NCBI GenBank assembly: GCA_963734595.1
Contig: CAVTHV010000018.1
Span: 248,962 to 312,961, forward strand
DNA: 64,000 nt
Reading direction: 5' to 3'
Source of the DNA: an uncultured beta proteobacterium
GTDB lineage: Bacteria > Pseudomonadota > Gammaproteobacteria > Burkholderiales > SG8-41
The notes beneath the pieces are model-generated. The model made no database searches and had not been told where the DNA came from. It worked only from the letters and a program-made list of their open reading frames with translations. Shown in pieces: positions 48,671 to 64,000 of the stretch (position 1 is the first letter of the stretch; each line of letters begins with the position of its first letter). A program made the position numbers and the translations under genes.

Positions 48671-48876
48671 AAAAAAGCGATGACACAAAGGACACAAAGG
48701 ATCACAGAGGAACGAGACAAGAAACACAGGGAAAATTAAATAAACCGCGTTCTTTGCAGATCCGGCGCCGATCGCAAGATGTCTGGTTATCCATTCAGAA
48801 CACGACCGTCATATATTGATCCGTTATTCCTTTGCGTGTCCTCTGTGTCCTTTGCGTCCTTCGCGTTTATGCTGTT
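48671..48876. repeat. palindromic element, copy 12 (GACACAAAG / CACAGAGG mixed arms)
   Basis: AAAAAAGCGATGACACAAAGGACACAAAGGATCACAGAGGAAC ... TTCCTTTGCGTGTCCTCTGTGTCCTTTGCGTCCTTCGCGTTTATGCTGTTGAAC. The right end lies 7 nt from the TAA of the minus-strand gene. Confidence 0.85.
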
Positions 48877-49620: not shown

Positions 49621-49708
49621 TGCCGGAAATTGTCGTTGTGGACCCGGCAGTATAACGGAAGCGGTTAGAATATCGCTTCGCCAGTTCACCCTTTCCCGGA
49701 GTCAGGAA

Positions 49709-50644
49709 ATGCCCGAAACAGGAGACACCATCGCCGTCATCGGCGGCGGTACCATGGGCGCGGACATCGCCGCGAGCTTCGCCGCCTGCGGCTGGACCGC
49801 CCATATCGTGAACCCGCAGGACCGCATGCGCGAGACGCTGCCCGCCCGGATCGAAGCCGCGATGCGCAAGCTGGGCAAGCCGTACCGGGAGACGGATTTC
49901 CCGCTGCATGACGGGCTGGCCACGCTGCCGTGGGCGAAAATCGACATCGTGATCGAAGCGGCGCCCGAGCGTCTCGACGTCAAGCAGCAACTGTTCGCGG
50001 AACTCGAGCGGCTCGCCCGCGCCGACGCGCCGCTGTGCAGCAACTCTTCGGCGATTCCCATCGGCCACATCGGCGCCGGCCTCAAGACGCAGAACCGCAT
50101 GGTCGGCACGCATTACTTCATGCCCGCGCACCTGGTGCCGGCGGTCGAAGTGGTGCGCTCGAAACACACCGACGTGGCGGTGGCGGACCGCGTCAGCGCG
50201 ATTCTCAAGAGCGTCGGCAAGGTGCCGGTGCGCGTCAATCTCGACATTCCGGGCTTTCTCGCCAACCGCATGCAGCACGCGCTGTCGCGCGAGGCGTTGT
50301 CGCTGGTCGAGCGCGGCATCGCGACGCCGGAAGACGTCGACAATGCCGTGCGCTACGGCTTCGGTTTCCGTTACATCGCCGCCGGACCGCTGCTGCAGCG
50401 CGACCACGCGGGCCTCGACGTGCATTGCGCCGCGGCTGCGACCATCTATCCCGACCTGTGCAACAGCGCGACGCCGAGCCCCGCCATGGCCGACCGCGTC
50501 AAGGCGGGCCACATCGGCATGAAGGCGGGGAAGGGCTTCTACGACTGGACCGGCGAGTCGATCGCGAAAGAGAAGGCGCGCTACGAAGCGGCGCTCACCG
50601 GGGCGATGGAAATCCTGAAGCGCGAGCGCGGCGATGCCGTGTAA
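49709..50644 (+). CDS. 3-hydroxyacyl-CoA dehydrogenase family protein
   Basis: IAVIGGGTMGADIA Rossmann motif ...IEAAPERLDVKQQLF...SNSSA... Confidence 0.85.
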   Translation: MPETGDTIAVIGGGTMGADIAASFAACGWTAHIVNPQDRMRETLPARIEAAMRKLGKPYRETDFPLHDGLATLPWAKIDIVIEAAPERLDVKQQLFAELERLARADAPLCSNSSAIPIGHIGAGLKTQNRMVGTHYFMPAHLVPAVEVVRSKHTDVAVADRVSAILKSVGKVPVRVNLDIPGFLANRMQHALSREALSLVERGIATPEDVDNAVRYGFGFRYIAAGPLLQRDHAGLDVHCAAAATIYPDLCNSATPSPAMADRVKAGHIGMKAGKGFYDWTGESIAKEKARYEAALTGAMEILKRERGDAV

Positions 50645-50648
50645 ACGC

Positions 50649-50870
50649 TAAAAGCATAAACGCAAAGGACACAGGAAGCCAAGATCAAAAAGAGCATTAA
50701 CGCAAAGGACGCAAAGTAACGCGAAGGTTCGCAAAGGAATACATAACCGAGAACTCTTGTCGAGACCCGTTAAGAGTTCCACACAATGAAAACAGACATT
50801 GGATTTCATTTTTCCTTGTTTTCCTTCGCGTTCCTTTGCGTACCTTTGTGTCCTTTGCGTTCATGCTTTT
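50649..50870. repeat. palindromic element, copy 13 (two tandem left termini)
   Basis: TAAAAGCATAAACGCAAAGGACACAGGAAGCCAAGATC, then AAAAAGAGCATTAACGCAAAGGACGCAAAGTAACGCGAAGGTTCGCAAAGG ... TTTTCCTTCGCGTTCCTTTGCGTACCTTTGTGTCCTTTGCGTTCATGCTTTT. Confidence 0.85.
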
Positions 50871-50886
50871 ATTGAAGGGATGTAGC

Positions 50887-51528
50887 TTGACTCAACTGAT
50901 ACTCATACGCCACGGCGAGACGCTCTGGAACCGCCAGGGCCGCATGCAGGGCCAGCAGGACAGTCCGCTCACCGAGGTCGGCGAGCGCCAGGCGCGCCGG
51001 CTCGGCCGGCGGCTGGCGAGCATCGCATTCGACACGCTTTACAGCAGCGATCTCGGGCGCGCGCACCAGACCGCATGCCGCGTGGCCGAGGTCACCGGGC
51101 ACGCGATCACCGTCGACGAGCGCCTGCGCGAGCGTCATTTCGGCGTGTTCGAGGGACTGACGTCAGACGAACTGCAGGCCCGCTATTCAGCCGAATACGA
51201 GCGTTTCAGGAGCCGCGATGCGGATTACGTCGTGCCCGGCGGCGAGAGCGCGCAGCAGTTTCGCGCGCGCACCATCGCTTGCCTGCGCGAGATCGCCGAG
51301 CGCCATGCCGGCGGCACGGTGGCCGTGGTCACGCACGGACTCGTGCTCGATACGGCGTATCGCGCGGCCTATGCGCTCGCGCCCGCCGCGCCGCGCCCCG
51401 TCCCGTTGCTCAATGCGAGCCTCAACATTTTCCGCTATGCCGGCGGACGCTGGCATTGCGAGACATGGGGCGACGTGGACCACCTGCAGGAGGAATCCGT
51501 CACGCGCTTCGAAGGCCGCGGCGTCTAG
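50887..51528 (+). CDS. histidine phosphatase (phosphoglycerate mutase) family protein
   Basis: LILIRHGETLWN...SSDLGRAHQTA...VVTHG. TTG start inferred. Confidence 0.8.
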   Translation: MTQLILIRHGETLWNRQGRMQGQQDSPLTEVGERQARRLGRRLASIAFDTLYSSDLGRAHQTACRVAEVTGHAITVDERLRERHFGVFEGLTSDELQARYSAEYERFRSRDADYVVPGGESAQQFRARTIACLREIAERHAGGTVAVVTHGLVLDTAYRAAYALAPAAPRPVPLLNASLNIFRYAGGRWHCETWGDVDHLQEESVTRFEGRGV

Positions 51529-51531
51529 TCC

Positions 51532-52179
51532 ATGAGCAAACAGGAAACGGTGGTTGTGGTGCACGGCCTGTGGATGCACGGCGTGGTGATGACGCTGGTG
51601 CGGCGGCGCATCGAACGCTGCGGCTACCGGGCGCTGAGCTACTCGTATCCGTCGATGGCACTCACGCTCACCGAGAACGCCGCGCGGCTGGCGCAATTCT
51701 GCCGCGACATTTGCCTCGACAGCGGCGCATCGCGATTGCATTTCGTCGGCCACAGCCTCGGCGGGCCGGTGATACTCAGGATGCTGGAGGGCGCGGCGGA
51801 CCTGGATATCGGGCGCATCGTGCTTGTCGGGCCGCCGATCCTCGGCAGTTTCGCTGCGGAGCGCTTTGCGCGGCTGCCGGGAGGCCGGAAAGCCCTCGGC
51901 CACAGCATTCCCGAGTGGCTGGAAAGCGCTCCGCCGTCAGGCCTCGGGCGCTACGAGATCGGCGTTATCGCCGGCGATGCCCATATCGGACTCGGCACGC
52001 TGATTGTGCCGGCGCTGCCCCGCCCGAACGACAGCGTGGTCAGCGTGGCCGAGACCCGGCTGCCGGGCGCGAGCGATCACATCGTGCTCAACGTCAGCCA
52101 TACCGCAATGCTGGTTTCGGCCGCCGTCGCCCGGCAGATCTGCGAATTTCTGGAGCACGGAGCGTTCAAAAGAGACTAG
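51532..52179 (+). CDS. alpha/beta hydrolase (esterase/lipase-like)
   Basis: VVVVHGLWMHG...FVGHSLGG... Confidence 0.8.
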   Translation: MSKQETVVVVHGLWMHGVVMTLVRRRIERCGYRALSYSYPSMALTLTENAARLAQFCRDICLDSGASRLHFVGHSLGGPVILRMLEGAADLDIGRIVLVGPPILGSFAAERFARLPGGRKALGHSIPEWLESAPPSGLGRYEIGVIAGDAHIGLGTLIVPALPRPNDSVVSVAETRLPGASDHIVLNVSHTAMLVSAAVARQICEFLEHGAFKRD

Positions 52180-52420
52180 GGACTAGGGATGAAGGATGAG
52201 GGATGAGGGAAAGCGGGGAATGGGGATGAGTAATGGGAATTAAGTGATTGAGTGATTCGTAAATCGTGAATCGTCAATCGTGAGTCGTGAGAGGTTAATT
52301 TAATTTTGTTTTTCCTCTGTGTCCTTTGTGTCCTTCGTGTCTCTGCTTTGCGGTTTTTGATCGGGTTACCTTTGCGAACCTTCGCGGACCTTCGCGTCCT
52401 TTGCGTTCATGCTTTTGATC
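52177..52420. repeat. composite palindromic element, copy 14 (GGGATGAG array, GTGATTGA/AATCGTGA array, then CCTTCGC-type right arm)
   Basis: It starts on the TAG stop: TAGGGACTAGGGATGAAGGATGAGGGATGAGGG...AAGTGATTGAGTGATTCGTAAATCGTGAATCGTCAATCGTGAGTCGTGAG ... TTTTCCTCTGTGTCCTTTGTGTCCTTCGTG...CCTTTGCGAACCTTCGCGGACCTTCGCGTCCTTTGCGTTCATGCTTTT. Confidence 0.8.
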
Positions 52421-52529
52421 GTCCTAGCGGTTCAAAAATCCGGGAATGGGAACAACACGGATGAGAGCCCTGAAGGATGCGTTTCACTTGATGAGGGAAC
52501 AAGGGCGGTGATGAATGGTCGATAAATAG

Positions 52530-53603
52530 ATGAAATCCGCTCTCCGTATCATCGCCGTCGCGATGCTGCTGACGCTCGCCGGCTGCGCCGATCTCGGCTA
52601 TTACATGCAGTCGATGGACGGGCAGTTCGACGTCTGGAACCGCGAGCGTCCGATCGGCGACGTCATCGCCGACCCGGCGACGCCGGCCGCACTCCGGGAA
52701 AAACTCGAAGGCGTGCAGCGCATCCGCGAATTCGCAAGCCGCGAGCTGGGACTGCCGGACAACGCGAGCTACCGGCGCTATGCCGATCTCGGGCGGCCGT
52801 TCGTGGTATGGAACGTGTTTGCGGCGCCGGAGTTTTCCACCAAACCGGTGCGGTGGTGCTTTCCCGTTGCGGGCTGCGTCGGCTATCGCGGCTATTTCGA
52901 CAAAGCCGAGGCCGATCGTTTCTCTGCCGATCTCGCTGCAGGGGGTGACGACGTGTACGTGGACGGCGTGCCGGCTTACTCGACGCTTGGCTATTTCGAC
53001 GACCCGGTGCTCAATACCTTCATTCACTATCCCGATGCCCGGTTGGCGCAGCTGATTTTCCATGAACTCGCCCACCAGGTGGTTTATGTGCGCGACGATT
53101 CCGTGTTCAACGAGTCCTTCGCGGTCACGGTCGAGCGCGAGGGCGTCAGGCGCTGGCTCGAGCGTTATGGCGGCGCACACGACAAAGCCACCTACGAGCG
53201 CATGCGCCAGTACCGCGAGGGTTTTATCCGGCTCGTCCAGGATTATCGCGAGCGGCTCGACGCGCTCTATGCCAGCGGGCTGGCGCCGCAGGAGATGCGC
53301 GAACGCAAGCGGGAGCTGTTCGACGCGATGACCCGGGATTACGGCAAACTCAAGGCGGGCTGGAACGGATTCGGAGGCTACGACCGGTGGTTCGCGCAAC
53401 GGCCCAACAACGCGCAGATTGCCTCAGTCACGATCTATACCCAGATGGTGCCGGAATTCCAGGCCTTGCTCGAAAGGGAGGGCCGGGATTTGCCGCGGTT
53501 TTACGCCGCGGTCAGGGAGCTTGCCGGGCTGGACAAACAGGAACGAACCCGCAGGCTGGACAGCCTGCTTGCGCCGGCCGCCGTTTCCGGCGCCGGACCA
53601 TAG
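52530..53603 (+). CDS. putative zinc aminopeptidase lipoprotein (DUF2265-like)
   Basis: LAGC lipobox and HELAHQ zinc motif. Confidence 0.8.
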   Translation: MKSALRIIAVAMLLTLAGCADLGYYMQSMDGQFDVWNRERPIGDVIADPATPAALREKLEGVQRIREFASRELGLPDNASYRRYADLGRPFVVWNVFAAPEFSTKPVRWCFPVAGCVGYRGYFDKAEADRFSADLAAGGDDVYVDGVPAYSTLGYFDDPVLNTFIHYPDARLAQLIFHELAHQVVYVRDDSVFNESFAVTVEREGVRRWLERYGGAHDKATYERMRQYREGFIRLVQDYRERLDALYASGLAPQEMRERKRELFDAMTRDYGKLKAGWNGFGGYDRWFAQRPNNAQIASVTIYTQMVPEFQALLEREGRDLPRFYAAVRELAGLDKQERTRRLDSLLAPAAVSGAGP

Positions 53604-53626
53604 CGCCGGCGCGGTATAATTTCCCT

Positions 53627-53795
53627 AAGAGCGCATTTCAAGAAGACCAGGACAGACGAAGCCACAGAGAGCACAGAGTTTTCTTTTCAATACCGGGTGC
53701 ACGGAGAGAATCAAAACACTTATTTAAAACAACCGGATACGAAACAGGTCCCGTTGCCGGTTTTTCCTCTGTGTTCTCTGTGATCTCCGTGGCTA
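53627..53795. repeat. palindromic element, copy 15 (CACAGAGAA type)
   Basis: AAGAGCGCATTTCAAGAAGACCAGGACAGACGAAGCCACAGAGAGCACAGAG ... TTTTTCCTCTGTGTTCTCTGTGATCTCCGTGGCTAA. Confidence 0.8.
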
Positions 53796-53838
53796 ATTCA
53801 TTTTGTTACGGGCTCTAAGCCGGCACAGGAGCACGACC

Positions 53839-54468
53839 ATGAAACTGACGAGCACGAGTTTCGGCAACAACCAGCGCATCCCGGCGGAATTCGCCTTCTG
53901 CGCGCCCGATCCGAAAACCCATGTCACGCTGTCCAAGAACCGCAATCCCGAATTGTCGTGGAGCGATCTGCCGGCCGGCACGCTATCGCTCGCTCTGATC
54001 TGCCACGACCCCGATGTGCCGTCCCGGCCCGACGACGTCAACCAGGAGGGGCGCAGCGTTCCGGCGTCGTTGCCGCGGATCGATTTCTATCACTGGCTGC
54101 TGGTGGATCTCGATCCCAAATCCGCGTCGCTCAAGGCCGGTGAATTTTCCGACGGCGTCACCACGCGCGGCAAGGGCGGACCTTCCGGCCCGCGCGGCAC
54201 CCGCCAGGGCATCAACGATTACAGCGCATGGTTCGGCGGCGACAAGGACATGTCCGGCGATTATTTCGGCTACGACGGCCCGTGCCCGCCGTGGAACGAC
54301 ACCATCCCGCATCATTACGTGTTCACGCTTTACGCGCTCGATGTGCCGGGTTGTCCGGTGAGCGGCAGGTTCAGGGGCGCAGACGTGCTTGCCGCGATCA
54401 AGGGTCATGTGCTGGGCCAGGCCAGCATCACCGGCGTCTACAGCCTGAACCCCGACGTTAAAATTTGA
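53839..54468 (+). CDS. YbhB/YbcL family Raf kinase inhibitor-like (PEBP) protein
   Basis: ...ALICHDPDVP...FYHWLLVDL...YDGPCPP...HHYVFTLYALD. Confidence 0.9.
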   Translation: MKLTSTSFGNNQRIPAEFAFCAPDPKTHVTLSKNRNPELSWSDLPAGTLSLALICHDPDVPSRPDDVNQEGRSVPASLPRIDFYHWLLVDLDPKSASLKAGEFSDGVTTRGKGGPSGPRGTRQGINDYSAWFGGDKDMSGDYFGYDGPCPPWNDTIPHHYVFTLYALDVPGCPVSGRFRGADVLAAIKGHVLGQASITGVYSLNPDVKI

Positions 54469-54535
54469 ACCTCTTTCCGCGCCACTAACGCCGGTTGGCG
54501 CCGGCCTTAGCCGCTTGTAAAAGGCAATTCCCTCC

Positions 54536-55739
54536 ATGAAGGTCATGGTCACGCCGCTTACCTCCGCGCCGGTCGCAGCCCGGCCGGTGGAAATCGTGGA
54601 GCGCAAGGGCACCGGCCATCCGGACACCATCTGCGATGCGCTGGCGGAGGAACTCAGCATCGCGCTGTCGAAGTTCTACCTCGAGCGCTGCGGCCTCATC
54701 CTGCATCACAACGTCGACAAGGCACTGCTGTGGGGCGGCGCGGCGCGCGCCGGCTTCGGCGGCGGCGAGGTGCTGCAGCCGATCGAACTGTTTCTCGCCG
54801 GACGCGCGACGCGCGAATTCCGCGGCATCGAGGTGCCGCTCGAGGAAATCGCGGTCGAGTCGACGCGGCGCTGGCTGAAAAACAACCTGCGGGCGCTCGA
54901 CGCCGAGCGCCATGTCCGCATCCATTGCCTGCTGCGGCCCAGTTCCGCCGCGCTCGTCGACCTGTTCCTGCGCCAGCGCGAAAGCGGCGTCGTGCTCGCC
55001 AACGACACGTCCTGCGGCGTCGGCTATGCGCCGCTCGATGCGCTCGAGACGCATGGTGCTGCGCGTCGAGCGCCACCTGAATTCGGCCGCGGCGCGCAGC
55101 GCCTGTCCCGCCATCGGCGAGGACATCAAGGTGATGGGGGTGCGCACCGGCGAGACGTTCCATCTCACCGTCGCCTGCGCCTTCATCGCGGCAGAGGTGA
55201 GGGACATGGCCGCGTACCAGGCGCACAAGGCGCGGGTGCGGGCGCTCGCGCTCGATGCGGCGCGCACGATCAGCAAGGCGCCGGTCGACGTGATGGTCAA
55301 TGCCGCCGACGGCGACACCGAGGACAGCGTCTACCTCACCGTCACCGGCACCTCGGCCGAGGCCGGCGACGACGGCGAGGTGGGGCGCGGCAACCGCGTC
55401 AACGGCCTGATCACGCCGTGCCGCCCGATGAGCATGGAGGCGGCGGCGGGCAAAAACCCGGTGAGCCACGTCGGCAAGCTCTATCACCTGGTTGCGGGGC
55501 GGATCACGCACCAGCTCGTCGCCGAGATTGCGGAGATCACCGAGGCGCAATGCCTGCTGGTGAGCGCCATCGGCCACCCGGTCGATCAGCCGCAGATCGC
55601 GGAGGTGAAGGTGCGCCTGACGGAGGTGCGTGCGCTCGGCGCGGTCGAGCCGCGCGTCGCGGCGGTGGTGCGCGACAACCTCGCAGGCATCAACTTACTG
55701 TGGCGGGAAGTGGTGGCCGGCAAGCAGCCGGTGTGGTGA
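54536..55739 (+). CDS. archaeal-type S-adenosylmethionine synthetase (methionine adenosyltransferase), one frameshift near 55045
   Basis: ...[18 protein letters not shown]...HHNVDKAL...[14 protein letters not shown], then in ORF 54912..55739 ...[10 protein letters not shown]...[47 protein letters not shown]... Confidence 0.75.
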
Positions 55740-55757
55740 GTCCCGCTAACGCCCCGT

Positions 55758-56087
55758 CAAAAGCATTAACGCGAAGGACGCAAAATTAAAAAGAGCATGA
55801 ACGCGAAGGACGCGAAGGTTCGCAAAGGAATGCAAGATCATGAATTCAAATCGAGAATCATCGAATCAGTAACACCGATCAAAGGAAATGTCGGGTTGTC
55901 GCTATCTTTTATTTGATTTTCCTTCGCGTTACTTCGCGTCCTTCGCGTCCAAGATTTTTTTGTTCTGTGCCGTTAGCTGCGTCCGAATATCCATACAGAG
56001 CCGCAAATTATCTAAGCCGGATCTTTGATAAGTCCTGCCCCGGCTTTCCTTTGCGCACCTTCGCGGACCTTTGCGTTAATGCTTTTG
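55758..56087. repeat. composite palindromic element, copy 16 (two left termini, inner right arm, module M, outer right arm)
   Basis: CAAAAGCATTAACGCGAAGGACGCAAAA / TTAAAAAGAGCATGAACGCGAAGGACGCGAAGGTTCGCAAAGG ... TTTTCCTTCGCGTTACTTCGCGTCCTTCGCGTCC ... module M ... TTTCCTTTGCGCACCTTCGCGGACCTTTGCGTTAATGCTTTTGAAC. It abuts the phaC stop (CTA 56090-56092). Confidence 0.85.
56005..56031 (-). promoter_or_regulatory. promoter-like box pair inside module M (minus strand)
   Basis: Read on the minus strand: TTATCA - 15 nt - TAATTT. Confidence 0.25.
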
Positions 56088-56089
56088 AA

Positions 56090-57832
56090 CTAGATCTCGT
56101 GCACATAACTCCCCGGCGCGGGACCGAGCACCGGGTATTTTTTGCTGCCGGGCGCGCGCGCCGCGACTTTCGGGCCGCAGTGCCTGCCGAGCCATCCCGC
56201 CCAGTTGTCCCACCAGCTGCCCTCGACCTTGTGCTGCTGTTTGTGCCATTCCTCCGGCGGCGCTGAGTTGGTTTCGCCGCTCCAGTAGCTGCGCTTGGGC
56301 GGTTTCACCGGCGGATTGATGATGCCGAGGATGTGGCCCGAGCTCGACAGCGTGTAGCGCACCGGGGCGTCGATCTTGCCCGCGATCTTGAACGTCGCTT
56401 TCCACGGCGCGATGTGGTCCTCCTCGCAGCCCACCGCATACAGCGGCTGGCGGATCCGGCCGAGATCGATGCGGTGGCCGGCCAGCTCCAGCGCGTCCTT
56501 TTTGTCGAGCTTGTTGTTCAGGTAAAACTCGCGCAGGTAGTAGCTGTGCATCGTGTGCGGCATGCGCGTCATGTCGGTGTTCCAGTACAGCACGTCGAAC
56601 GGCGGCGGCGTCTCGCCGTAGAGGTAGTTGTGCACGAAATAGTGCCAGATCAGGCTGTTCGAACGCAGCATGCGGAACGCGCGCCCCATGTCGTGGCCGT
56701 CGAGGTAACCCTGGTGCGCCATCGTTTCCTCGAGCGTGTCGATGGTCTCTTCGTTGATGAACACCTCGATGCCGCCGGGGCGCGAGAAGTCGATCAGCGT
56801 GGTGAGCAGCGTCCAGTGCGGGACCGGAACCTGCCCGGCGTTGGGATATTCGCGGTTGAACCACGCCATCAGCGCCGCGAGCGCGGTGCCGCCGATGCAG
56901 TAGCCTGCCGCGTGCGCGTGGGAGGTGCCGCAAATGCTGCGCGCGACGTCGATGGCCTGGCGCAGTCCCTTCATCAGGTAGTCGTCGAACGTCGTGTCGG
57001 CATCGCGCGCGGTCGGGTTTTTCCAGCTCACGACGAACACCGTGAAGCCCTGGTTCACCAGGTAGCGCAGCAGGCTCTTTTTTTCGTTGAGATCGAGGAT
57101 GTAATACTTGTTGATCCAGGGCGGGATGATGACCAGCGGCACCGTGTGCACCTCGGCGGTCGTTGGCGCGTACTGGATGAGCTCCATCAGTTCGTTGCGG
57201 TAGACCACCGCGCCCGGCGTGGTGGCGAGATTCTTGCCGACCTTGAACGCCGAACGGTCGACCATCCGCACGTCGCCGTTGCGCAGGTCCTCGAGCCACA
57301 GCTTGAGTCCGGCCGCAATGCTTTGCCCGCCGGTCTCCCAGAATCTGCGGACGGCGACGGGATTGGTGAAAAAATAATTGGTCGGCGCAACCGCGTTCAG
57401 CCACTGGCGTGCCCAGAACGTCGCGCGGCGGCGGTCTTTGGCCGGAACCCCCGGCGTCTCGAACAGCGCCTCCTGCGACCAGCGGGTGTAGAGCAGGTAG
57501 AACTGCTTCAGGATCGAGAGCGCCGGCAATTCGGACCACGCGGGATCGGCGAAGCGCGCGTCGTCGGCTGCCGCCGTGTGACACGGCCGCGGCTGCAGCC
57601 CGGTCACGGTTTGCCAGGCGTGGAGCTGCAACTCCTGCAGATCGCGCGCGAGATCGGCTAGCGCCGCCGACAGCTCGGCGGGATGCGTGACCCAGCCCCC
57701 GGTGACTTTGTTCATCGAGGCGCCGATGCCGAACGGGTCGACCGAGCGGTGGAGCCGGGCCATCTCGTCGGTCCACTGCGCGAAGCCGGCCTGCCACTCG
57801 GCGGGGGGCGTATCGGTGGTTGGCTTCTTCAA
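56090..57832 (-). CDS. phaC: class I poly(R)-hydroxyalkanoate synthase
   Basis: 580 aa, intact. Lipase-box GYCIGG, ...PPWINKYYILDL..., ...HIAPW..., ...SGHI... Confidence 0.95.
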   Translation of the reverse strand: MKKPTTDTPPAEWQAGFAQWTDEMARLHRSVDPFGIGASMNKVTGGWVTHPAELSAALADLARDLQELQLHAWQTVTGLQPRPCHTAAADDARFADPAWSELPALSILKQFYLLYTRWSQEALFETPGVPAKDRRRATFWARQWLNAVAPTNYFFTNPVAVRRFWETGGQSIAAGLKLWLEDLRNGDVRMVDRSAFKVGKNLATTPGAVVYRNELMELIQYAPTTAEVHTVPLVIIPPWINKYYILDLNEKKSLLRYLVNQGFTVFVVSWKNPTARDADTTFDDYLMKGLRQAIDVARSICGTSHAHAAGYCIGGTALAALMAWFNREYPNAGQVPVPHWTLLTTLIDFSRPGGIEVFINEETIDTLEETMAHQGYLDGHDMGRAFRMLRSNSLIWHYFVHNYLYGETPPPFDVLYWNTDMTRMPHTMHSYYLREFYLNNKLDKKDALELAGHRIDLGRIRQPLYAVGCEEDHIAPWKATFKIAGKIDAPVRYTLSSSGHILGIINPPVKPPKRSYWSGETNSAPPEEWHKQQHKVEGSWWDNWAGWLGRHCGPKVAARAPGSKKYPVLGPAPGSYVHEI

Positions 57833-57949
57833 GGGATCACTCTATCATTGCGGCCTGTCCGCGGCGGCGGAGCCGCGCGCGGCGAGACTCGCAAATATGA
57901 TACGCCGATCCGGGTTGATATTCCGGAATTTCCGGGAAAGCTTTGACCT

Positions 57950-58200
57950 AACGCAAAAGCCCAAGATCAAAAAAAGCCTGAACGCAAAGGGCGCGAAGGA
58001 CCGCAAAGGTTCGCAAAGGAAAAACAAGGGCAAATGATAATTAAAACCTCGCATTCATAATCGTTATTGCAATATTTCCGGAAATTGCCGTTCTTGGTTT
58101 ACTTTGCATTACTTCGCGAACGCTGTTGCGTCCTTTGCGTCAATGCTTTTTGTGAACTTATATATCAGTAACCTTTGCGCCCTTTGCGTTAATGCTCTAG
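57950..58200. repeat. composite palindromic element, copy 17 (in the phaC-hrpA divergent region)
   Basis: AACGCAAAAGCCCAAGATCAAAAAAAGCCTGAACGCAAAGGGCGCGAAGGACCGCAAAGGTTCGCAAAGG ... TTTGCATTACTTCGCGAACGCTGTTGCGTCCTTTGCGTCAATGCTTTTT ... ACCTTTGCGCCCTTTGCGTTAATGCTCT. Confidence 0.8.
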
Positions 58201-58217
58201 GTTTTTAAGATCTTTCA

Positions 58218-61200
58218 TTGAAAATTGACCCCGAACAGCGCCTGCGCAATCTGCCGCAGCCGACTTACCCCGAAGACCTGCCGGTCGTCGCCCGGCGCGA
58301 GGAGATCGCGCGCGCCATCGCCGCCAACCAGGTCGTCATCGTCTGCGGCGAGACCGGCTCGGGCAAGACCACGCAGCTGCCCAAGATCTGCCTCGAGCTG
58401 AAGCGCGGCGTCGCCGGCCTGATCGGCCACACGCAGCCGCGGCGCATCGCCGCGCGCACCGTCGCCGCGCGCATCGCCCAGGAACTGAAATCCCCGCTCG
58501 GCCACGCCGTCGGCTTCAAGGTGCGCTTCGCCGACAAGCTGTCGGCCAACACCTACATCAAGCTCATGACCGACGGCATCCTGCTCGCCGAAACCCAGGG
58601 CGACCGGCTGCTGAACGCCTACGACACGCTGATCATCGACGAGGCGCACGAGCGCAGCCTCAACATCGATTTCCTGCTCGGGCTATGTGAAGCGCATCCT
58701 GCCGCAGCGTCCCGATCTCAAGCTGATCGTCACCTCGGCCACCATCGACGCCGAGCGCTTCTCGCAGCACTTCGACGACGCGCCGGTGATCGAAGTCTCG
58801 GGCCGCACTGTATCCGGTGGAGATGCGCTACCGGCCGCTCGCCGCCAGTGACGACGACGAGCAGGAACAGGACATGGAGCAGGCGATCCTCGACGCCGCG
58901 GACGAGCTCGCGCGCGAGCGCGCGGGCGGCGACATCCTGGTGTTCCTGCCCGGCGAGCGCGAGATCCGCGACACCGCCGAGCTCCTGCGCAAGCACCATC
59001 CGCCGGGCACCGAAATCCTGCCGCTCTATGCGCGGCTGTCGTTCGAGGAGCAGGAGCGCGTGTTCCAGCCCGGCGGCGCGCGCCGCATCGTGCTCGCCAC
59101 CAACGTCGCCGAAACCTCGCTCACCGTGCCCGGCATCCATTACGTGATCGACACCGGGCTCGCGCGCATGAACCGCTACAGCTACCGCAACAAGGTCGAG
59201 CAGCTGCAGGTCGAGAAAATCTCGCGCGCCTCCGCCAACCAGCGCGCCGGCCGCTGCGGGCGGGTGGCGGCGGGCGTGTGCATCCGGCTTTACGCGGAAG
59301 AGGATTACGCGGCGCGGCCCGAGTTCACCGACCCGAGATCCTGCGCTCGTCGCTGGCGGCGGTGATCCTGCGCATGAAGTCGCTGAGGATCGGCGAGATC
59401 GAGGACTTTCCGTTTCTCGAGCCGCCGACCCCGCGCATGATCGCCGACGGCTACCAGCTGCTGGCCGAGCTCGGCGCGGTCGACGAAAACAACCAGCTGA
59501 CGCCGGTCGGCTGGCAGCTCGCGAAATTCCCGATCGACCCGCGCATCGCGCGCATGATCGTCGCCGCGAAACAGGAGAACTGTCTCACCGAGGTGCTGAT
59601 CATCGCTTCCGCGCTGACGGTGCAGGACCCGCGCGAGCGGCCGTTCGAGCGCGCCGAGGCCGCCGACCGCGCGCACCAGGCTTTCCAGGACGAGCGCTCG
59701 GACTTCCTCGCCTATCTCAAGCTGTGGGCGTTCTTCGAGGAGGCGCTGAAGCACAAGAAGTCGAACCGCAAGCTCGCGGAACTGCTGCACGCGAACTTTC
59801 TGTCGCACCGGCGCATGCGCGAATGGCGCGACATCCACGGCCAGCTCGCCGCGCTACACGGGCGAGCTCGGCATGCTCGCCAACGAGACGCCGGCGAGCT
59901 TCGAGCAGATCCACCGCGCGCTGCTCGCGGGGCTGCTCGGCAACATCGGCTTCAAGAACGAGGAGGGCGAGTATCTCGGCGCGCGCGCGATCAAGTTCGC
60001 GATCTTCCCCGGCTCGGTGCTGCGCAAAGCGCAGCCCAAATGGGTGATGGCCGCCGAACTGACCGAGACCACGCGGCTCTACGCGCGCTGCGTCGCGAAA
60101 ATCGATCCGGAATGGATAGAGCCGGTGGCGCAAGCGCTGGTCAAAAAGCATTACTTCGATCCGCACTGGGAAAAGGAGCGCGCGATGGTGGTCGCGTTCG
60201 AGCGCGTCACGCTCTACGGCCTCACCATCGTCGCCAAGCGCCGCGTGCACTACGGCCCGATCGACCCGAAGGAAGCGCGCGAAATTTTCATCCGCCGCGC
60301 GCTCGCCGCCGGCGACTACCTGACGCGCTCGACGTTTTATGAACACAATCAACGGCTTATTAAAGAAGTGCAGGAACTCGAGCACAAGGCGCGGCGGCGC
60401 GACGTGCTGGTCGACGAGCAGGTGATTTTCGAGTTCTACGATGCGCTGATCCCGCCGGGCATCCACAACGGCGCGGCGTTCGAGAAATGGCGGCGCGAGG
60501 CCGAAGCGCAAGGACCCGAAGCTGCTGTACCTGACGCGCGACTACCTGATGCGGCACGCGGCCTCCGATATCACGGAAGCGCAGTTCCCGGAAACGCTCG
60601 CCGCGGCCGGCACCGAACTTGCGCTCAAGTACCGTTTCGATCCCGGCCACGCGCTCGACGGCGTGACGGCGACCGTGCCGCTGCATCTGCTGAACCAGCT
60701 CGAGGCGGCGGACTTCGACTGGCTGGTGCCGGGACTGATCCGCGACAAGGTTGCGTTCGCGTTCAAGGCGCTGCCGAAAACGATCCGCAGAAACCTGGTG
60801 CCGGTGCCGGAACAGGTGACCGGCATTCCTGACGGAATGCGAAAAGCGGGAGGCGGGAGGCGGGAGGACGGGAACCGCTTGCGGACGGCGCTCGCGCGCG
60901 TATCGTGCAGCGCGCAGTGGGTGCGCCGGTGGCGGCCGAGGTGCTGGAGGCGATCGACTACCCGCCGCATCTCAGGATGAATTTCCGCGTCGTCGACGAC
61001 GCCGGGCGCGAACTGGCGGGCGGGCGCGATCTCGCCGCGCTGAAGGCGCAGCTTGAGCCAGGCGGCGCAGCTCACGTTCGGCAAAGCCGAGCCCGGCATC
61101 GAGCGCGACAACATCCGCACCTGGGACTTCGGCGACCTGCCGCGGGAAATTGCGTTCGACCGCGGCGGCCACCGGCTGACCGGCTACCCGGCGCTGGTGG

Positions 61201-61961
61201 ACGAGGGCGACAGCGTCGCGATCCGCCTGTTCGACGTGCCGCAGACCGCCGAGGCGGCGATGCGCGCCGGCGTCACGCGCCTGATGCGCCTCATGCTCAA
61301 GGAGCAGATGAAGCAGCTCGAAAAGGGCCTGCGCGGCTTCGAGCAGGCGGCGCTGCAGCTGCGCGCCGTCGCGAACGCGGACGATTTGCGCGGGGACCTG
61401 ATCGCCGCGATCACCGACCGCGCGTTCATCGGCGAGGACGCGCTGCCGCGCACGCAGCAGGAATTCGAGGTCCAGGTGAAGCGCGCGCGCACGCGCCTGC
61501 CGGCGGTGAGCGAGGCGGCGTGCCGGCTGTTCGTCGCGATCGCCGCCGAATATCACAGCGTGTCGCTGAAGCTCGGCGGCAGCGGCGGGGCGCTCGCGCG
61601 CGTCGCGGCCGACGTGCGCGCGCAACTCGCGCGGCTCGTCTGCAAGGGCTTTATCAGCGCGACGCCGTGGGAGCAGCTCGCGCATCTGCCGCGCTATCTG
61701 AAGGCGCTGGCGCTGCGGCTCGAAAAATATGCGCGCGATCCCGCGCGCGACGCGAAGCACGCGCAAAGCATCGCCGAGCTGTGGAAGCGTTACGAGGAAA
61801 GACTGGACAAGCAGAGGAAGGCGGGCGCGGTGGATCCGCGGCTGGAGGAATTCCGCTGGCAGCTCGAAGAGCTGCGGGTGTCGCTGTTCGCGCAGGAGCT
61901 GAAGACGCCGTACCCGGTGTCCTACAAGCGGCTGGACAAGATCTGGAATGCGATGCGGTGA
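58218..61961 (+). pseudogene. hrpA: ATP-dependent RNA helicase HrpA, about 7 frameshifts
   Basis: [48 protein letters not shown] and QRAGRCGR motifs, plus the long HrpA C-terminal region, distributed over ORFs 58218.., 58817.., 59278.., 59873.., 60549.., 60905.., 61053..61961. Confidence 0.85.
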
Positions 61962-62035
61962 GAAAATCAAAAAGAGCATTAACGCAAAGGGCGCAAAGGT
62001 TCGCGAAGTAACGCAAAGGGTAGCCAGGGCAGGGC

Positions 62036-62062
62036 TTATCAAAGTTCTGGTCTGGATAATTA
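62036..62062 (+). promoter_or_regulatory. promoter-like box pair in module M, copy 1 upstream of the GxxExxY gene
   Basis: TTATCA - 15 nt - TAATTA on the plus strand. Confidence 0.3.
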
Positions 62063-62165
62063 GCGGCTCTGTGCGGTTATGCGAACGCCGGCTGAAATCC
62101 GGGACAAAAAGCATGAACGCAAAGGACGCGAAGGATCGCAAAGGAAGGCCAGGATTTATCAAAGG

Positions 62166-62193
62166 ACCGGAACTGGATAATACGACGCTGTGC
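62166..62193 (+). promoter_or_regulatory. promoter-like box pair in module M, copy 2 upstream of the GxxExxY gene
   Basis: TTATCA - 16 nt - TAATAC on the plus strand. Confidence 0.3.
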
Positions 62194-62371
62194 GGTTATG
62201 CGGATGCCTGGTGGAATCCAGGACAAAAAAGCATGAACGCGAAGGACGCGAAGGTTCGCAAAGGAAGACAAGACCGAAATTTAATAAGAACCGGCAATTA
62301 ACAAACCGATAACCTGTAACCGCCGCTGCGTTGTGCGTTAGTGGACCTGTGGCGTCAATCAGGAAGGCAGC

Positions 62372-62739
62372 ATGGACGAAGAAGCTGCAGCAAGGCAGGT
62401 GCTCGATTCAGCGATGAAGGTTCATACTGCGCTGGGGCCGGGCCTGCTGGAAAGTGCCTACGAAGTCTGCCTGGACTACGAACTGTCGAAACGCGGCATA
62501 AACGTCAGCAAGCAGGTGCCGATAGCCGTCCGTTACGATGGGGTCGCGACTCCTGCATAGTCTGACTGGTCGAGAGCAAGGTCGTGGTTGAAGTAAAGGC
62601 TATTGAAAAACTTCTGCCGTTACATCATGCACAACTGCTCAGTTACCTGAAACTCGGCGGATACAAGATCGGCCTGTTGCTGAACTTCCATGCCCTTCAC
62701 CTGCGGGACGGGATTAAACGCATCGTCAACGGCATTTAA
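62372..62739 (+). pseudogene. GxxExxY protein (PD-(D/E)XK nuclease-like family), disrupted
   Basis: AGGAAGG RBS. MDEEAAARQVLDSAMKVHTALGPGLLESAYEVCLDYELSKRGINVSKQVPIAVRYDGV..., then a stop at 62558-62560. The family-typical C-terminus LVESKVVVEVKAIEKLLPLHHAQLLSYLKLGGYKIGLLLNFHALHLRDGIKRIVNGI continues in another frame from 62566 to TAA at 62737-62739. A few residues around the junction appear to be deleted. Confidence 0.75.
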
Positions 62740-62953
62740 CCCCTCCGTCTATCTGGTCCTCGATATTTTTAGCTTTTCCTTCGCGAACCTTTGCGTCATT
62801 GCTTCATGCTTTTGACCTCGTTGTTTACTCCCGTAGCAGCCGGCATTTCTATTTCCCCGAATTCCGGTTTTCGATAAATATTATTTCTGTATTTCCTTAG
62901 CGAACCTTTGCGATCCTTCGCGTCCATTGCGTTAATGCTTTTGAACTTAAACA

Positions 62954-63793
62954 TCACTCCCGCACCAGCCAATCCACCTTCACCCCGCCCGCGCCGTCGA
63001 CCGACAGCGCGCGCCACAGCCAATCCAGCAGCGGCTGCGCTTCGTCCTTGAACTGCCACGGCGGGTTCACCACCAGCATGCCGCAGCCGGGAATCACCGG
63101 CGAATTCTCCGCCATGATCGAAAACTCCAGCCGCAGGATCTTGCGGATGCCGGTCTTCTCCACGTCGCGCGCGAAGCCGAGCATGGCGCCATGCGCCATC
63201 AGCGGATACCAGATCGCATACGTGCCGGTCGCCCAGCGCTCGTGCGCTTCCTTCAGCGCCGTGGCGATGCGCGCGAATTCCTTCGCGCGGTCGAACGAGG
63301 AATCGATCAGCACCAGCCCGCGCCGCTCTTTCGGCGGCAGGTACGCTTTCAGCGCCTGGTAGCCGTCGAGCAGCTGGATCACCGTCTGCTGCTCGCGTCC
63401 CATCCACTTGCAGAGGTCGGCAAAATCGGTCTTGTTGAGCTCGGTCAGCACCATGCGGTCGCCGGGGCGCATGAGCCCGCGCGCGATGCGCGGCGAGCCG
63501 GGATAGAACCGCAGCTTGTGGTCGGGGTTTTCCGCCTTCACCGCGTCGAGGTACGGCGCGAGCGCCGCGGGGATGTCCTTGCGGTCCCACAGGCGGGCGA
63601 TGCCGTTCTCGTATTCGCGCACCTTCTGCGCCCAGGCGTGGGTGAGGTCGTAGCGGCCGATGCCGGCGTGGGTGTCGAGATAGAAGTAGGGCTTGTCCTT
63701 TTGCGCGAGCGCGACGAGCAGCCGCGTGAGCAGCGCGTGCTTGAAGACGTCGGCGAAATTGCCGGCGTGGAAGAGGTGGCGGTAGGAGAGCAT
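62954..63793 (-). CDS. rlmJ: 23S rRNA (adenine2030-N6)-methyltransferase RlmJ
   Basis: MLSYRHLFHAGNFADVFKH...YPGSP...LIDSSFD...WYP...NPPW. Confidence 0.9.
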   Translation of the reverse strand: MLSYRHLFHAGNFADVFKHALLTRLLVALAQKDKPYFYLDTHAGIGRYDLTHAWAQKVREYENGIARLWDRKDIPAALAPYLDAVKAENPDHKLRFYPGSPRIARGLMRPGDRMVLTELNKTDFADLCKWMGREQQTVIQLLDGYQALKAYLPPKERRGLVLIDSSFDRAKEFARIATALKEAHERWATGTYAIWYPLMAHGAMLGFARDVEKTGIRKILRLEFSIMAENSPVIPGCGMLVVNPPWQFKDEAQPLLDWLWRALSVDGAGGVKVDWLVRE

Positions 63794-63817
63794 GCTTGCT
63801 CTAAGCTTAGAAAATCG

Positions 63818-64000
63818 TTTAAAAGCATAGACGCGAAGGACACAAAGGATCGCGAAGGAAATCGAAAACGAAAACGAGATACAAAAATAAAAATGATCCC
63901 GAAGCGGAACGGTGGGCGGCGACTCTTATTCAAGAACCGATTAATTGCCCGGCATCGAATTTATTGTTATGCCTTCCTTTGCGTGTCCTTCGCGTCCTTT
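63818..64000. repeat. palindromic element, copy 19 (runs into the window end)
   Basis: TTTAAAAGCATAGACGCGAAGGACACAAAGGATCGCGAAGGAAATCG ... GCCTTCCTTTGCGTGTCCTTCGCGTCCTTT. Confidence 0.8.

Follow-up and report, generated by a model that had tools for sequence, protein, structure and literature searches.

The 64,000-nucleotide stretch of DNA analysed here (hereafter, the window) carries a hairpin-armed cassette at 61965-62943, in which a leader and a split GxxExxY reading frame are enclosed by three arms on the left and two on the right, the left arms being separated by two copies of a module termed M. Upstream lies an hrpA-like helicase gene (58218-61961, plus strand), whose C-terminal ORF matches PF11898 and whose TGA (61959-61961) stands 4 nt before the cassette. 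Single-nucleotide insertions, six of them by comparison with the related contig L082, break this gene into six or more frame segments, and the HrpA protein of another relative, L087, matches the window in alternating frames (tblastn). The downstream flank is formed by rlmJ (62954-63793, minus strand; PF04378, E = 1e-79), a 23S rRNA methyltransferase gene that is intact and convergent with the cassette.

Each left arm opens with the terminus AAAA(G)AGCATKAAC, followed by three to four tandem CGCRAAGG units at 9-10 nt spacing. The outer left terminus and arm L1 (61966-62019, plus strand) read ATCAAAAAGAGCATTAAC and then four units, CGCAAAGG, GCGCAAAGG, TTCGCGAAG and TAACGCAAAGG; the partner of L1 in the RNA fold is the outer right arm. 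Next come the first copy of module M (62020-62105, plus strand), a conserved arm-adjacent module with no consensus promoter, and left arm L2 (62106-62144, plus strand; AAAAAGCATGAAC and three units), then the second copy of M (62145-62225, plus strand), a direct repeat seen by local alignment, and the inner left arm L3 (62226-62264, plus strand; AAAAAAGCATGAAC and three units). The left-arm repeats follow one another at spacings of 135 and 120, and L2 together with the second M forms a tandem duplication of about 120 nt that is absent from L082 and L084. The leader (107 nt, 62265-62371, plus strand) carries a Shine-Dalgarno-like AGGAAGG at 62361-62367, 4 nt ahead of the ATG at 62372; its conservation is confined to orthologous cassettes and it occurs in no gene-less element. 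It is followed by the GxxExxY pseudogene (62372-62739, plus strand; PF13366 / TIGR04256, PD-(D/E)XK) and by a trailer that runs from the stop codon to the inner right arm (62740-62774, plus strand). The inner right arm with its terminus (62775-62813, minus strand; TTTCCTTCGCGAACCTTTGCGTCATTGCTTCATGCTTTT) was found by repeat search and pairs with L2 in the RNA fold. A spacer (62814-62891) separates it from the outer right arm and terminus (62892-62942, minus strand; TTTCCTTAGCGAACCTTTGCGATCCTTCGCGTCCATTGCGTTAATGCTTTT), which end 11 nt from the rlmJ stop codon. When read inward from the outer right arm, the arm-proximal part of this spacer resembles the L087 leader (z = 9.5). The arm stretch 62107-62144 is 95% complementary to 62905-62942.

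The first-pass annotation, made from the sequence alone, had described this layout, and we found every structural element in its place, including the leader and its AGGAAGG. It had also named this the sole copy in the window with a protein-coding cargo, which agrees with our finding that no other arm pair has a coding interior, the others enclosing about 80-230 nt. Arms of at least three units number 24 in the window versus 0.05 in shuffles, and 536 of 550 unit spacings measure 9 or 10 nt. It is largely shown that the locus is a hairpin gene cassette, in which a 125-codon GxxExxY gene with its own leader sits inside inverted arms of three to four CGCRAAGG units capped by AAAAGCATKAAC. With five arms and M present twice, the window cassette is, to the same degree, shown to be nested or duplicated.

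Module M is a well-supported repeat (z = 22 by local alignment), of which seven copies were aligned, including 47330-47420 (minus strand) and 55955-56048 (minus strand) in the window and copies in L082, L157 and L177. These modules had initially been called promoter-like, a description that we do not retain: the TTATCA...GATAAT hexamers are separated by merely 13-14 nt, and a scan of 61900-63000 returned neither sigma-70 promoters or promoter-like sites nor intrinsic terminators. A MAFFT alignment placed the L087 leader under M; we rejected M as a copy of the leader, the local alignment giving z below 3 against shuffles. No Rfam family reached its gathering score in the window, no rRNA match was obtained, and relaxed thresholds applied to the window cassette and a Nostoc cassette yielded chance-level matches only. 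The RNA fold of the whole cassette is strong (z = -10.3), and so are the predicted arm stems, which span some 40-60 bp (z about -10); the structure of module M is weak (z from -0.4 to -2.3). Mismatches between arms, counted in the sense RNA, comprise 72 G:T versus 96 A:C and show no G-U bias, and arms are modestly more alike within one element than between elements (25.3 versus 21.5). These two observations suggest that selection for pairing is weak or acts at the DNA level.

A broken nuclease-like reading frame

Both halves of the split frame score far above the curated cut-offs of the family profiles (22 bits for PF13366 and 35 bits for TIGR04256). The half at 62372-62560 obtains 58.1 and 59.2 bits, respectively, the half at 62584-62739 obtains 50.3 and 48.3 bits, and the two cover profile positions 3-55 and 71-116. 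When conceptually repaired, the window protein is 93% identical to the intact protein P0001. GLLESAY is encoded near 62441-62461, and E-V-K is kept in the shifted frame from 62584. The break in the ORF, noted from the start as a frameshift with a small deletion, was confirmed and lies at 62543-62577, where, relative to intact orthologues, 10 nt net are lost and roughly 30 bases are scrambled. This lesion deletes G63-Y64-R65-D67, including the catalytic Asp, and a premature TAG stands at 62558-62560. No single uninterrupted frame of the window copy encodes both the GxxExxY motif and the catalytic residues E...D...ExK of the PD-(D/E)XK fold; the copy is a family member by descent, yet a pseudogene. 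The data largely show that the gene was killed recently and that this copy can no longer supply the protein function.

Within the family, E27, Y30, D67, E77 and K79 are invariant, and the AF2 model has an alpha-alpha-beta-beta-beta-alpha-beta topology. Its best PDB fold matches, at low TM-score, are Cas4 SSO0001 and other PD-(D/E)XK or restriction-type nucleases. A sequence search of the PDB with the GxxExxY protein gave no match, nor did PADLOC or PHROGs, and its family matches are PF13366 and TIGR04256 only, with no known transposase class among them. PF13366 itself is large: we obtained 19,279 clusters at 50% identity (E up to 0.001), and 7,998 of 8,000 candidates scored reached an E of 1e-10 or better.

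Relatives at the same locus

All relatives that we recovered have the cassette in the spacer between hrpA and rlmJ, and an intact, arm-flanked GxxExxY gene of 125 codons is found there in L081, L082, L084, L087 and L234. The relatives' genes are under purifying selection, with dN/dS of 0.08-0.22. The first-pass annotation had taken the window copy for a candidate autonomous or ancestral copy. We find instead an orthologous resident of the hrpA-rlmJ locus that is dead in the window and has not recently transposed.

The history of the cassette differs from that of its neighbour. Based on rlmJ, the window and L081 form one group versus L082, L084 and L087, dS being 0.12 and 0.21 inside the two groups and 0.35-0.48 from one to the other. 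Based on GxxExxY, the window, L081 and L082 are set against L087 (dS of 0.14-0.27 versus 1.2-1.6), and L084 and L082 encode the same protein, P0004. The switch in phylogeny between cassette and rlmJ falls at the outer right terminus and is seen in contigs from two different samples. Judged from these sequence comparisons, the conflict and its position indicate that the cassette was apparently swapped between lineages as a discrete unit, with a breakpoint at the arm terminus; recombination of the rlmJ side, instead of the cassette, could also be the source of the incongruence. Replacement at one site is the form of polymorphism that we observed for the gene cassette, and nothing else. All 16 Nostoc loci likewise represent one orthologous locus.

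Association of arms and gene in other genomes

Inverted arrays of tandem 8-11-nt units flank the GxxExxY gene at 56 of 79 loci from many phyla, a locus being counted when its flanking inverted repeat exceeded the 95th percentile of the controls (control maximum, 12). Arm density is 1.44 per kb within 250 nt of a GxxExxY gene and 0.019 elsewhere, corresponding to a 75-fold enrichment. Strong inverted repeats flank 47 of the 1030 ORFs that are 90-170 aa long, and about 42 of these 47 are GxxExxY genes. Another Burkholderiales MAG (L090) has the gene at a different locus, with ACACAAAGG units and the terminus AAAAAGCCATTAC; more than one arm-flanked GxxExxY gene is present in some genomes, L017 with its second copy among them. 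Between phyla, where protein identity is down to 45-59% and synonymous sites are saturated, the units preserve the motif C[GA]C[AG][AG]AG, and arm similarity tracks protein similarity (Mantel r = 0.34, matched by none of 2000 permutations). In Brevundimonas, Gemmatimonadaceae, Phenylobacterium and Chitinophagales, gene-less hairpins match the gene cassette of the same genome in arm subtype and terminus.

The mobilisation idea of the first-pass annotation had been staked on finding intact GxxExxY genes elsewhere between the same arms. With such genes in the relatives, in L090 and at the 56 of 79 loci, it passed this first attempt at refutation. Arms and gene are genuinely linked, and this link is much older and wider than the window alone could show; that the two constitute one evolutionary unit across phyla is, in large part, demonstrated. 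A search of the available literature library found no paper on the association, although database comments may mention it.

Arms without a gene

About 16 other intergenic hairpin sites in the window carry the same arms and no gene. A complete example lies at 47245-47470, where module M adjoins the right arm. Further copies are located at 5775-5900, 23495-23722, 30168-30320, 44538-44745, 48675-48875, 50688-50870, 53650-53805, 55790-56085 and 57970-58200, and solo or doubled arms at about 9189, 21100, 28790, 45705 and 52315-52405. The gene-less hairpin neighbouring the cassette (63817-64000) is cut by the window end and occupies a site that holds differing elements among relatives. These elements sit in intergenic spacers within a few nucleotides of start and stop codons, often between co-directional genes. 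They are polymorphic in presence between related genomes: the elements at 52236-52542 and 53650-53805 are missing in L087 and represent window-specific insertions relative to it, and the rlmJ-mazG spacer contains differing elements in the window and L081, in L082 and in L087, a single intergenic site that differs in four relatives. The arm pattern had no match in viral contigs, and a plasmid collection contributed a weak gene match and a single gene-less element, which lies between vnf genes of Nostoc.

Gene-less and gene-bearing copies have the arms alone in common, with no shared subterminal or internal sequence. In about 60 complete gene-less elements we detected no leader, trailer or gene remnants, and local alignment showed their interiors to be mutually unrelated, module M excepted. 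Sixty complete elements displayed no target-site duplication of 3-9 nt beyond shuffled pairings, a 2-nt duplication staying possible; direct repeats at the ends of the inverted repeats numbered 4 versus 4.4 in shuffles at k = 4, and 0 versus 0.2 at k = 6. Solo arms and hybrid arm pairs also occur. The lack of cassette remnants and the unrelated interiors indicate that gene-less copies are not simple deletion derivatives. These results, including the lack of a 3-9 nt duplication, speak against the earlier suggestion that the empty copies are non-autonomous derivatives of the gene-bearing one.

A second protein family between similar arms

Genes for the four-helix-bundle "23S IVS protein" (PF05635) that lie outside rRNA are enclosed by arms of the same design, whose unit sequences vary widely. 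Deletion derivatives of such cassettes do occur: L071 has an intact four-helix-bundle cassette and, next to it, one with an internal deletion. Neither the window nor 488 kb of arm-rich contigs from its lineage contained four-helix-bundle cargo with the window arm type, and the protein obtained a weak match to a DGR Avd phrog only (PADLOC, PHROGs). The family is not a nuclease; a nuclease is therefore not needed for the architecture to exist, which weakens the nuclease fold as the cause of spread. In Coxiella, the intervening sequence (IVS) of 23S rRNA contains a four-helix-bundle ORF with tandem heptamers upstream; its terminal inverted repeats pair into a stem of 28 bp that RNase III cuts, and the ORF seems dispensable (PMC4990558). 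The origin and mobility of such sequences and their ORFs have posed a question for about 30 years (PMC4990558). The window cassette shares with them an ORF in terminal inverted repeats, a long stem and tandem short repeats beside the ORF. It is located between hrpA and rlmJ, outside 23S helices 9, 25 and 45, and its ORF belongs to PF13366 and not to S23p / PF05635.

Discussion

Our best explanation, proposed tentatively and at somewhat less than an even chance, is a resident hairpin cassette that is exchanged as a unit, with arms cut by RNase III and a GxxExxY nuclease acting on cognate arms; its mechanism is one that we infer. In any transcript crossing the element, the arms would fold into a 40-60-bp duplex for RNase III to cut. 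Cleavage would make insertion inside transcription units harmless and release the ORF-bearing RNA. This step is modelled on the 23S rRNA intervening sequence, which has a four-helix-bundle ORF between equivalent arms. The GxxExxY protein would be the cassette's own nuclease, recognising the tandem units of its cognate arms, and might drive turnover, replacement and spread of arm-bearing elements, comparable to RAYTs with REPINs or to homing endonucleases with introns. A mobilising role for this putative nuclease is plausible. Several findings count against this explanation: the GxxExxY gene stays at one locus over long periods, in the 488 kb of arm-rich metagenome contigs it is present solely between hrpA and rlmJ, a non-nuclease family shares the architecture, the interiors of gene-less elements are related neither to one another nor to the cassette, target-site duplications of 3-9 nt are lacking, and selection for pairing of the arms is weak or acts on the DNA.

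The arms might instead be an RNA-level device, be it an RNase III stem, an insulator of transcripts or a protection of 3' ends, with GxxExxY as cargo that has an unrelated cellular or selfish role, and with gene-less hairpins arising and spreading through host processes such as recombination, slippage or gene conversion. We consider this possible, if doubtful. The strong predicted stems (z about -10), the empty elements devoid of cassette remnants, their tight fit into spacers a few nucleotides from stop and start codons and often between co-directional genes, and the same architecture with very diverse units around an unrelated, non-enzymatic four-helix-bundle family would all suit such a device, as would the cleavage by RNase III of the Coxiella IVS with its seemingly dispensable ORF (PMC4990558). 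However, a plain stem would drift by compensatory change, whereas C[GA]C[AG][AG]AG is kept across phyla and arm similarity tracks protein similarity. The arms lack a G-U bias, their tandem units lie about one helical turn apart, which is typical of cooperative protein binding, and the protein is under purifying selection with its catalytic set intact. Alternatively, the nuclease could home: it would cut gene-less hairpins or diverged cassettes with cognate arms, and arm homology would guide repair from a copy that bears the gene, installing the ORF, which thereby invades pre-existing hairpins and does not create them. PD-(D/E)XK homing endonucleases such as I-Ssp6803I exist, the cassette has apparently been exchanged in place, its breakpoint lying at an arm terminus, and some genomes (L017) contain more than one arm-flanked gene. 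Homing is nonetheless unlikely: 488 kb of arm-rich DNA of the lineage contain one gene-bearing copy although potential targets number in the dozens, ordinary homologous recombination accounts for the replacement just as well, and the four-helix-bundle cassettes are left unexplained.

We judge it very unlikely that GxxExxY is the transposase of an autonomous transposon, moving by cut-and-paste or copy-and-paste, with the gene-less copies as MITEs that arose by internal deletion. Terminal inverted repeats common to both kinds of copy, presence/absence differences of gene-less copies between relatives and the deleted four-helix-bundle cassette beside an intact one in L071 could be read in this way. 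However, the 3-9 nt target-site duplication was not found, the roughly 60 complete gene-less elements have unrelated interiors and preserve nothing of leader, trailer or gene, some arms are solo or paired as hybrids, the gene is fixed at one locus in relatives, and a 125-aa single-domain PD-(D/E)XK protein fits no known transposase family. Chance similarity or an assembly artefact is extremely improbable. Three frameshifted genes within 8 kb (AdoMet synthetase, hrpA and GxxExxY) may hint at poor assembly, but phaC, rlmJ, a PBP-family gene and an aminopeptidase gene are intact, the lesion combines a 10-nt loss with scrambled bases and is no homopolymer slip, and arm counts are hundreds of times above shuffles. 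The same cassette architecture in independent assemblies from different samples already contradicts this reading.

More speculatively, and as a possibility that we regard with some reserve, PF13366 and PF05635 proteins might be the trans-acting factors of an unrecognised class of prokaryotic foldback-type elements that spans many phyla. Their genes would sit inside the arrays of 6-11-nt units that they recognise, the arms would multiply as gene-less hairpins, 23S intervening sequences would be the case that landed in rRNA, and GxxExxY would be a new repeat-mobilising or homing nuclease parallel to RAYTs. PF13366 is a very large family of no known function, for which the arms offer a testable link. 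Two large orphan families, GxxExxY and the four-helix bundle, both encoded inside inverted tandem-unit arrays, thereby gain a testable link to intergenic gene-less hairpin repeats, and the GxxExxY arms co-diverge with the protein and are spread through the genome as hairpins without a gene. In diverse bacteria, many short hairpin repeats between genes belong to gene-anchored families, which bears on annotation, on operon and RNA-processing models, and on metagenome assembly.

Several known systems share parts of this design. Eukaryotic foldback (FB) transposons have long terminal inverted repeats composed of tandem short units in variable number, and few copies contain an ORF. The likeness to tandem-unit inverted repeats with mostly gene-less and few ORF-bearing copies is one of architecture only, with no homology implied across different domains of life and different scales. 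Bacterial MITEs, such as Correia/NEMIS in Neisseria, ERIC and RUP, are co-transcribed as RNA hairpins and are possible RNase III substrates. Like them, the window elements are about 100-250 nt long, intergenic, bounded by terminal inverted repeats, co-transcribed with their neighbours and potentially cut by RNase III. Unlike them, they have no target-site duplication, their interiors are not conserved, their arms are internally repetitive, and a cognate gene-bearing copy exists. The REPIN-RAYT system combines REP doublets, made of short imperfect palindromes, with a REP-associated tyrosine transposase of the IS200/IS605-type HUH class. Here, too, a gene that is inherited vertically and keeps its locus is bordered by repeats of the kind found as inverted doublets in intergenic spacers throughout the same genome, and repeat subtype and gene co-vary between genomes. 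In contrast to RAYTs, the GxxExxY protein has a PD-(D/E)XK fold and matches PF13366 only, with no HUH/Y1 transposase, and its repeats are tandem-unit arrays separated by a spacer that differs from copy to copy.

The 23S rRNA intervening sequences of Coxiella burnetii and Leptospira (PF05635) differ from the window cassette in that the latter lies between protein-coding genes and encodes a PD-(D/E)XK protein in place of a four-helix bundle. The window arms are longer arrays with a conserved 9-10-nt unit and a defined terminus and have multiplied as dozens of intergenic gene-less hairpins; for the intervening sequences, cleavage by RNase III is the result obtained in Coxiella. The two nevertheless have in common an ORF of about 120 codons in terminal inverted repeats with a long stem and tandem short repeats upstream, as well as a sporadic distribution, vertical inheritance within a lineage, a decaying ORF and short versions that lack the ORF (PMC4990558).

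Anatomy of the cassette and decay of its gene

Two stop codons flank the cassette, that of an hrpA-like helicase gene (TGA, 61959-61961) and that of the convergent rlmJ (62954-63793). Three left arms (61966-62019, 62106-62144, and 62226-62264), each starting with AAAA(G)AGCATKAAC followed by three to four tandem CGCRAAGG units, are separated by two copies of module M (62020-62105 and 62145-62225). Next comes a leader of 107 nt, closing with AGGAAGG 4 nt ahead of the ATG at 62372; the GxxExxY reading frame is split into halves (62372-62560 and 62584-62739), and two right arms follow (62775-62813 and 62892-62942). The arm at 62107-62144 shows 95% complementarity to 62905-62942. Because a generic detector counted 24 window arms with three or more units vs 0.05 in shuffled sequence, and the RNA fold of the entire cassette reached z = -10.3, chance does not explain this layout. 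The first-pass annotation had described the same order of arms, termini, modules, leader, and gene, and had rightly considered it the sole copy in the window with protein-coding cargo, as no other arm pair of the window encloses a gene. Its view of the modules as promoter-like did not hold: a consensus scan gave no match, and the two hexamers of M are merely 13-14 nt apart.

The annotation was also correct in calling the reading frame broken. Taken separately, both halves score above the curated PF13366 and TIGR04256 thresholds, matching profile positions 3-55 and 71-116, and outside 62543-62577 the gene is 94-97% identical to two intact orthologues. Within this interval, a net loss of ten bases and ~30 scrambled bases delete the invariant G63-Y64-R65-D67 and introduce a premature TAG. 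Protein searches recovered intact 125-aa orthologues (P0001-P0011, 86-93% identical; P0017, 74%; P0018, 69%), which, where named, come from Burkholderiales or Betaproteobacteria MAGs, one record being a groundwater metagenome. Their dN/dS values of 0.08-0.22 indicate purifying selection on a conserved, functional gene, of which the window copy is a recently formed pseudogene. E27 (in the GxxExxY motif), Y30, D67, E77, and K79, all invariant across the aligned family, constitute a canonical PD-(D/E)XK set; an AlphaFold model (pLDDT 71) predicts the expected alpha-alpha-beta-beta-beta-alpha-beta core, with Cas4 SSO0001 and further PD-(D/E)XK nucleases as top PDB fold matches, none of them close. 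The top hits in a representative library, proteins P0121-P0131 (~266-295 aa), carry two tandem GxxExxY domains.

Counting an S-adenosylmethionine synthetase gene and the hrpA-like gene, three broken genes lie within 8 kb. The hrpA-like gene (58218-61961), directly 5' of the cassette, falls into at least six frame segments, with six 1-nt insertions outside homopolymers in its last 1.2 kb alone relative to the related locus L082. The archaeal-type synthetase gene (PF01941; 54536-55739) occupies two frames (profile positions 2-134 and 170-395), and this entire 1.4-kb gene is missing from the syntenic contig of L087, another relative. Nearby, phaC, rlmJ, a PBP-family gene, and an aminopeptidase gene are all intact.

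A resident locus with exchange between lineages

Placement between hrpA and rlmJ recurs at the P0001, P0004, and P0017 loci and in one metagenome contig, and synteny with L087 extends over 49556-63794 of the window. L087, the most distant of these relatives, has a simple form (single left arm, ~100-nt leader, gene, single right arm) whose arms pair over ~60 bp. Inner and outer arm pairs plus M characterize the window's clade, and an extra 120-nt duplication of arm and M occurs in the window alone. Since relatives share the hrpA-rlmJ site and all 16 Nostoc loci recovered represent one orthologous locus, the gene keeps its place over long periods.

The rlmJ sequences group the window and L081 against L082, L084, and L087 (identity 0.95 and 0.93 within, ~0.80 between), whereas the GxxExxY genes group the window, L081, and L082 (0.93-0.97) against L087 (0.75); L084 and L082 both encode the P0004 protein. 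Between L082 and L087, dS is 1.2 for the GxxExxY gene vs 0.21 for the adjacent rlmJ, and a sliding comparison places the switch between groupings at the outer right terminus. As contigs from two different samples carry the identical mosaic, it is no assembly chimera. Either the whole cassette would have been replaced, or the flank would have recombined, with the crossover falling at the arm; with the latter as the alternative, the sequences point to a cassette that stays at a fixed locus and is exchanged there as a unit.

Two contigs encoding an identical P0004 protein (L083, 1830-2100; L086, 590-700) diverge into other DNA past the first right arm, perhaps because DNA was rearranged at the arms or because the assemblies broke at repeats. 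In the orthologous cassette of L234 (~2830-2930, gene orientation), the inner right arm carries an insertion of a small palindromic element of a different kind (AGAGCGCCTAACAAAATGA ... TCATTTTGTTAGGCGCTCT), flanked by an apparent TTAG duplication.

Arms accompany the GxxExxY family

The survey covered 80 loci whose products are relatives at 35-59% identity; they represent Cyanobacteria, Bacteroidota, Planctomycetota, Chloroflexota, Acidobacteriota, Gemmatimonadota, Alpha- and Betaproteobacteria, candidate phyla, and archaea. The flanks could be compared at 79 of them, and at 56 the best inverted repeat linking the upstream 300 nt to the downstream 300 nt scored above the 95th percentile of 227 control intervals drawn from these loci (control maximum 12, observed median 16). 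Every arm is an array of 8-11-nt units (CGCAAAGG, CGCAGAGG, CACAGAG, CGCGGAG, CACGGCG, CACAGATT, and others), usually with (T)nAAC at the outward end. Within 250 nt of the gene, arms with the core C[GA]C[AG][AG][AC]G reach a density of 1.44 per kb, 75-fold above the 0.019 per kb measured elsewhere. An unbiased screen of the 1030 ORFs with 90-170 aa from all loci found a strong flanking inverted repeat in 47, ~42 of which are GxxExxY genes. Arms and proteins co-diverge (Mantel r = 0.34, reached in 0 of 2000 permutations; one Nostoc representative retained). The gene for P0022, a second Burkholderiales gene (65% identical), resides at another locus with ACACAAAGG arm units and a like-styled terminus, and this subtype is also present as gene-less elements in the window. 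Genes flanked by this kind of arm, for which the first-pass annotation had proposed to search, were hence found at the hrpA-rlmJ orthologues, the P0022 locus, and those 56 loci, and the pairing of arms with the gene characterizes the GxxExxY family as a whole. At L052, from an archaeal MAG, a CACGAAT/CACGGAT array (9900-9950 and 10385-10440) flanks the gene in direct, not inverted, orientation.

Gene-less elements

The ~17 arm sites of the window are all intergenic, often 0-40 nt from the adjacent stop or start codon, and their flanking genes may be co-directional, convergent, or divergent. A metagenome scan with one arm pattern gave, in 488 kb of arm-rich contigs, at least 215 arms and at least 61 inward-facing pairs; among the matches listed, pair interiors span 45-284 nt (median 109), and 536 of 550 unit spacings measure 9 or 10 nt. 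Members of other phyla carry gene-less hairpins a few kb away from the GxxExxY gene, and these match the arm subtype and terminus of the gene cassette, e.g. GGTTCATCACGGCG in Brevundimonas. Turnover is visible when orthologous sites are compared: two window elements are missing from L087, and the rlmJ-mazG spacer is occupied by one element in the window and L081, by an element whose interior differs in L082, and by a hairpin built of another unit type in L087.

A second subtype with CACAGAG units (e.g. GCCACAGAGAGCACAGAG ... CTCTGTGATCTCCGTGGC; 5775-5900, 21098-21140, 30168-30320, and 53650-53805) resembles the GxxExxY-flanking arms of Usitatibacter (L043) and Anaerolineales (L017); an AAAGCAT-type terminus precedes it at 5775, 21098, and 30168, and the window contains no cognate gene. 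Tandem arrays of GGGATGA/GTGATTC-type 7-8-nt units (window, 52150-52310; L087, 1905-1960 and 11330-11460) are a further class and make a hairpin in L087 at a site that, in the window, is taken by an element of the CGCRAAGG type. The unit variants CGCGAAGG, CGCAAAGG, CACGAAGG, and CACAAAGG (window arms, L135-L212) show G-to-A differences at CpG positions, and an orthologous element in the window and its close relative L081 differs by ~16% in the arms and ~7% in the interior, which would be consistent with CpG-type deamination or some other mutation process specific to the arms. Two solo left arms (28783-28825 and 45698-45745) sit directly 5' of host genes, in the likely 5' untranslated region, and their AAGG-rich units look like repeated Shine-Dalgarno sequences.

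A parallel in four-helix-bundle genes

One Planctomycetota contig, fetched for its GxxExxY gene with distinct arms of CCGATT units, also contains a four-helix-bundle (PF05635) gene enclosed by inverted arrays of GAGTCTGRG units, another PF05635 copy with an internal deletion between the same arms, and a hairpin of this type without a gene. Among PF05635 loci in viral contigs, 16 of 35 have flanking inverted repeats of at least 14 (control maximum 12), with very high diversity of the 6-9-nt units. At L071 (3085-3160), a GAGTCTCGG-type gene-less hairpin lies within the frame of a zinc-ribbon protein (PF13453), between its two domains.

Possible mechanisms and relation to known systems

Our preferred but tentative reading combines RNase III-processed arms with a GxxExxY protein acting on its cognate arms. 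By the precedent of the 23S rRNA intervening sequence (IVS), arms in transcripts would fold into an RNase III substrate, and with the stem cut, insertion in transcribed spacers would be harmless. Three features suggest that the protein would act on the arms in a RAYT-like or homing-like manner: a unit motif that is conserved, a spacing of about one helical turn, and the agreement of gene-bearing with gene-less arms within genomes. Against this combination stand the same design in the non-nuclease four-helix-bundle family, the lack of a G-U bias in favour of RNA-level selection, and the two arms of one element being only slightly more alike than arms of different elements.

That the cassette is purely a passenger or RNA device seems rather unlikely to us, and homing on its own or a strict transposon less likely again. 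The first-pass annotation had proposed the gene-less copies as non-autonomous derivatives; in the strict, MITE-type form this fails because, module M excepted, element interiors are mutually unrelated, no gene-less copy examined retains traces of leader, trailer, or gene, solo arms and hybrid arm pairs occur, and no target-site duplication of 3-9 nt was found.

Rfam, PDB sequence search, PADLOC, and PHROGs returned nothing for the GxxExxY protein or its arms, and the literature searched mentions the family only in passing, its function given as unknown. The nearest described system is the 23S IVS cassette. In Coxiella, its S23p ORF is accompanied by terminal inverted repeats forming a 28-bp stem that RNase III cleaves, and by tandem GACAGAT heptamers 5' of the ORF whose copy number varies between strains; its origin is still unexplained (PMC4990558). 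As in the GxxExxY and PF05635 cassettes, stem-forming terminal inverted repeats enclose an ORF, and the window cassette is a variant of this design that differs in its ORF, its site outside rRNA, and its multiplied gene-less copies.
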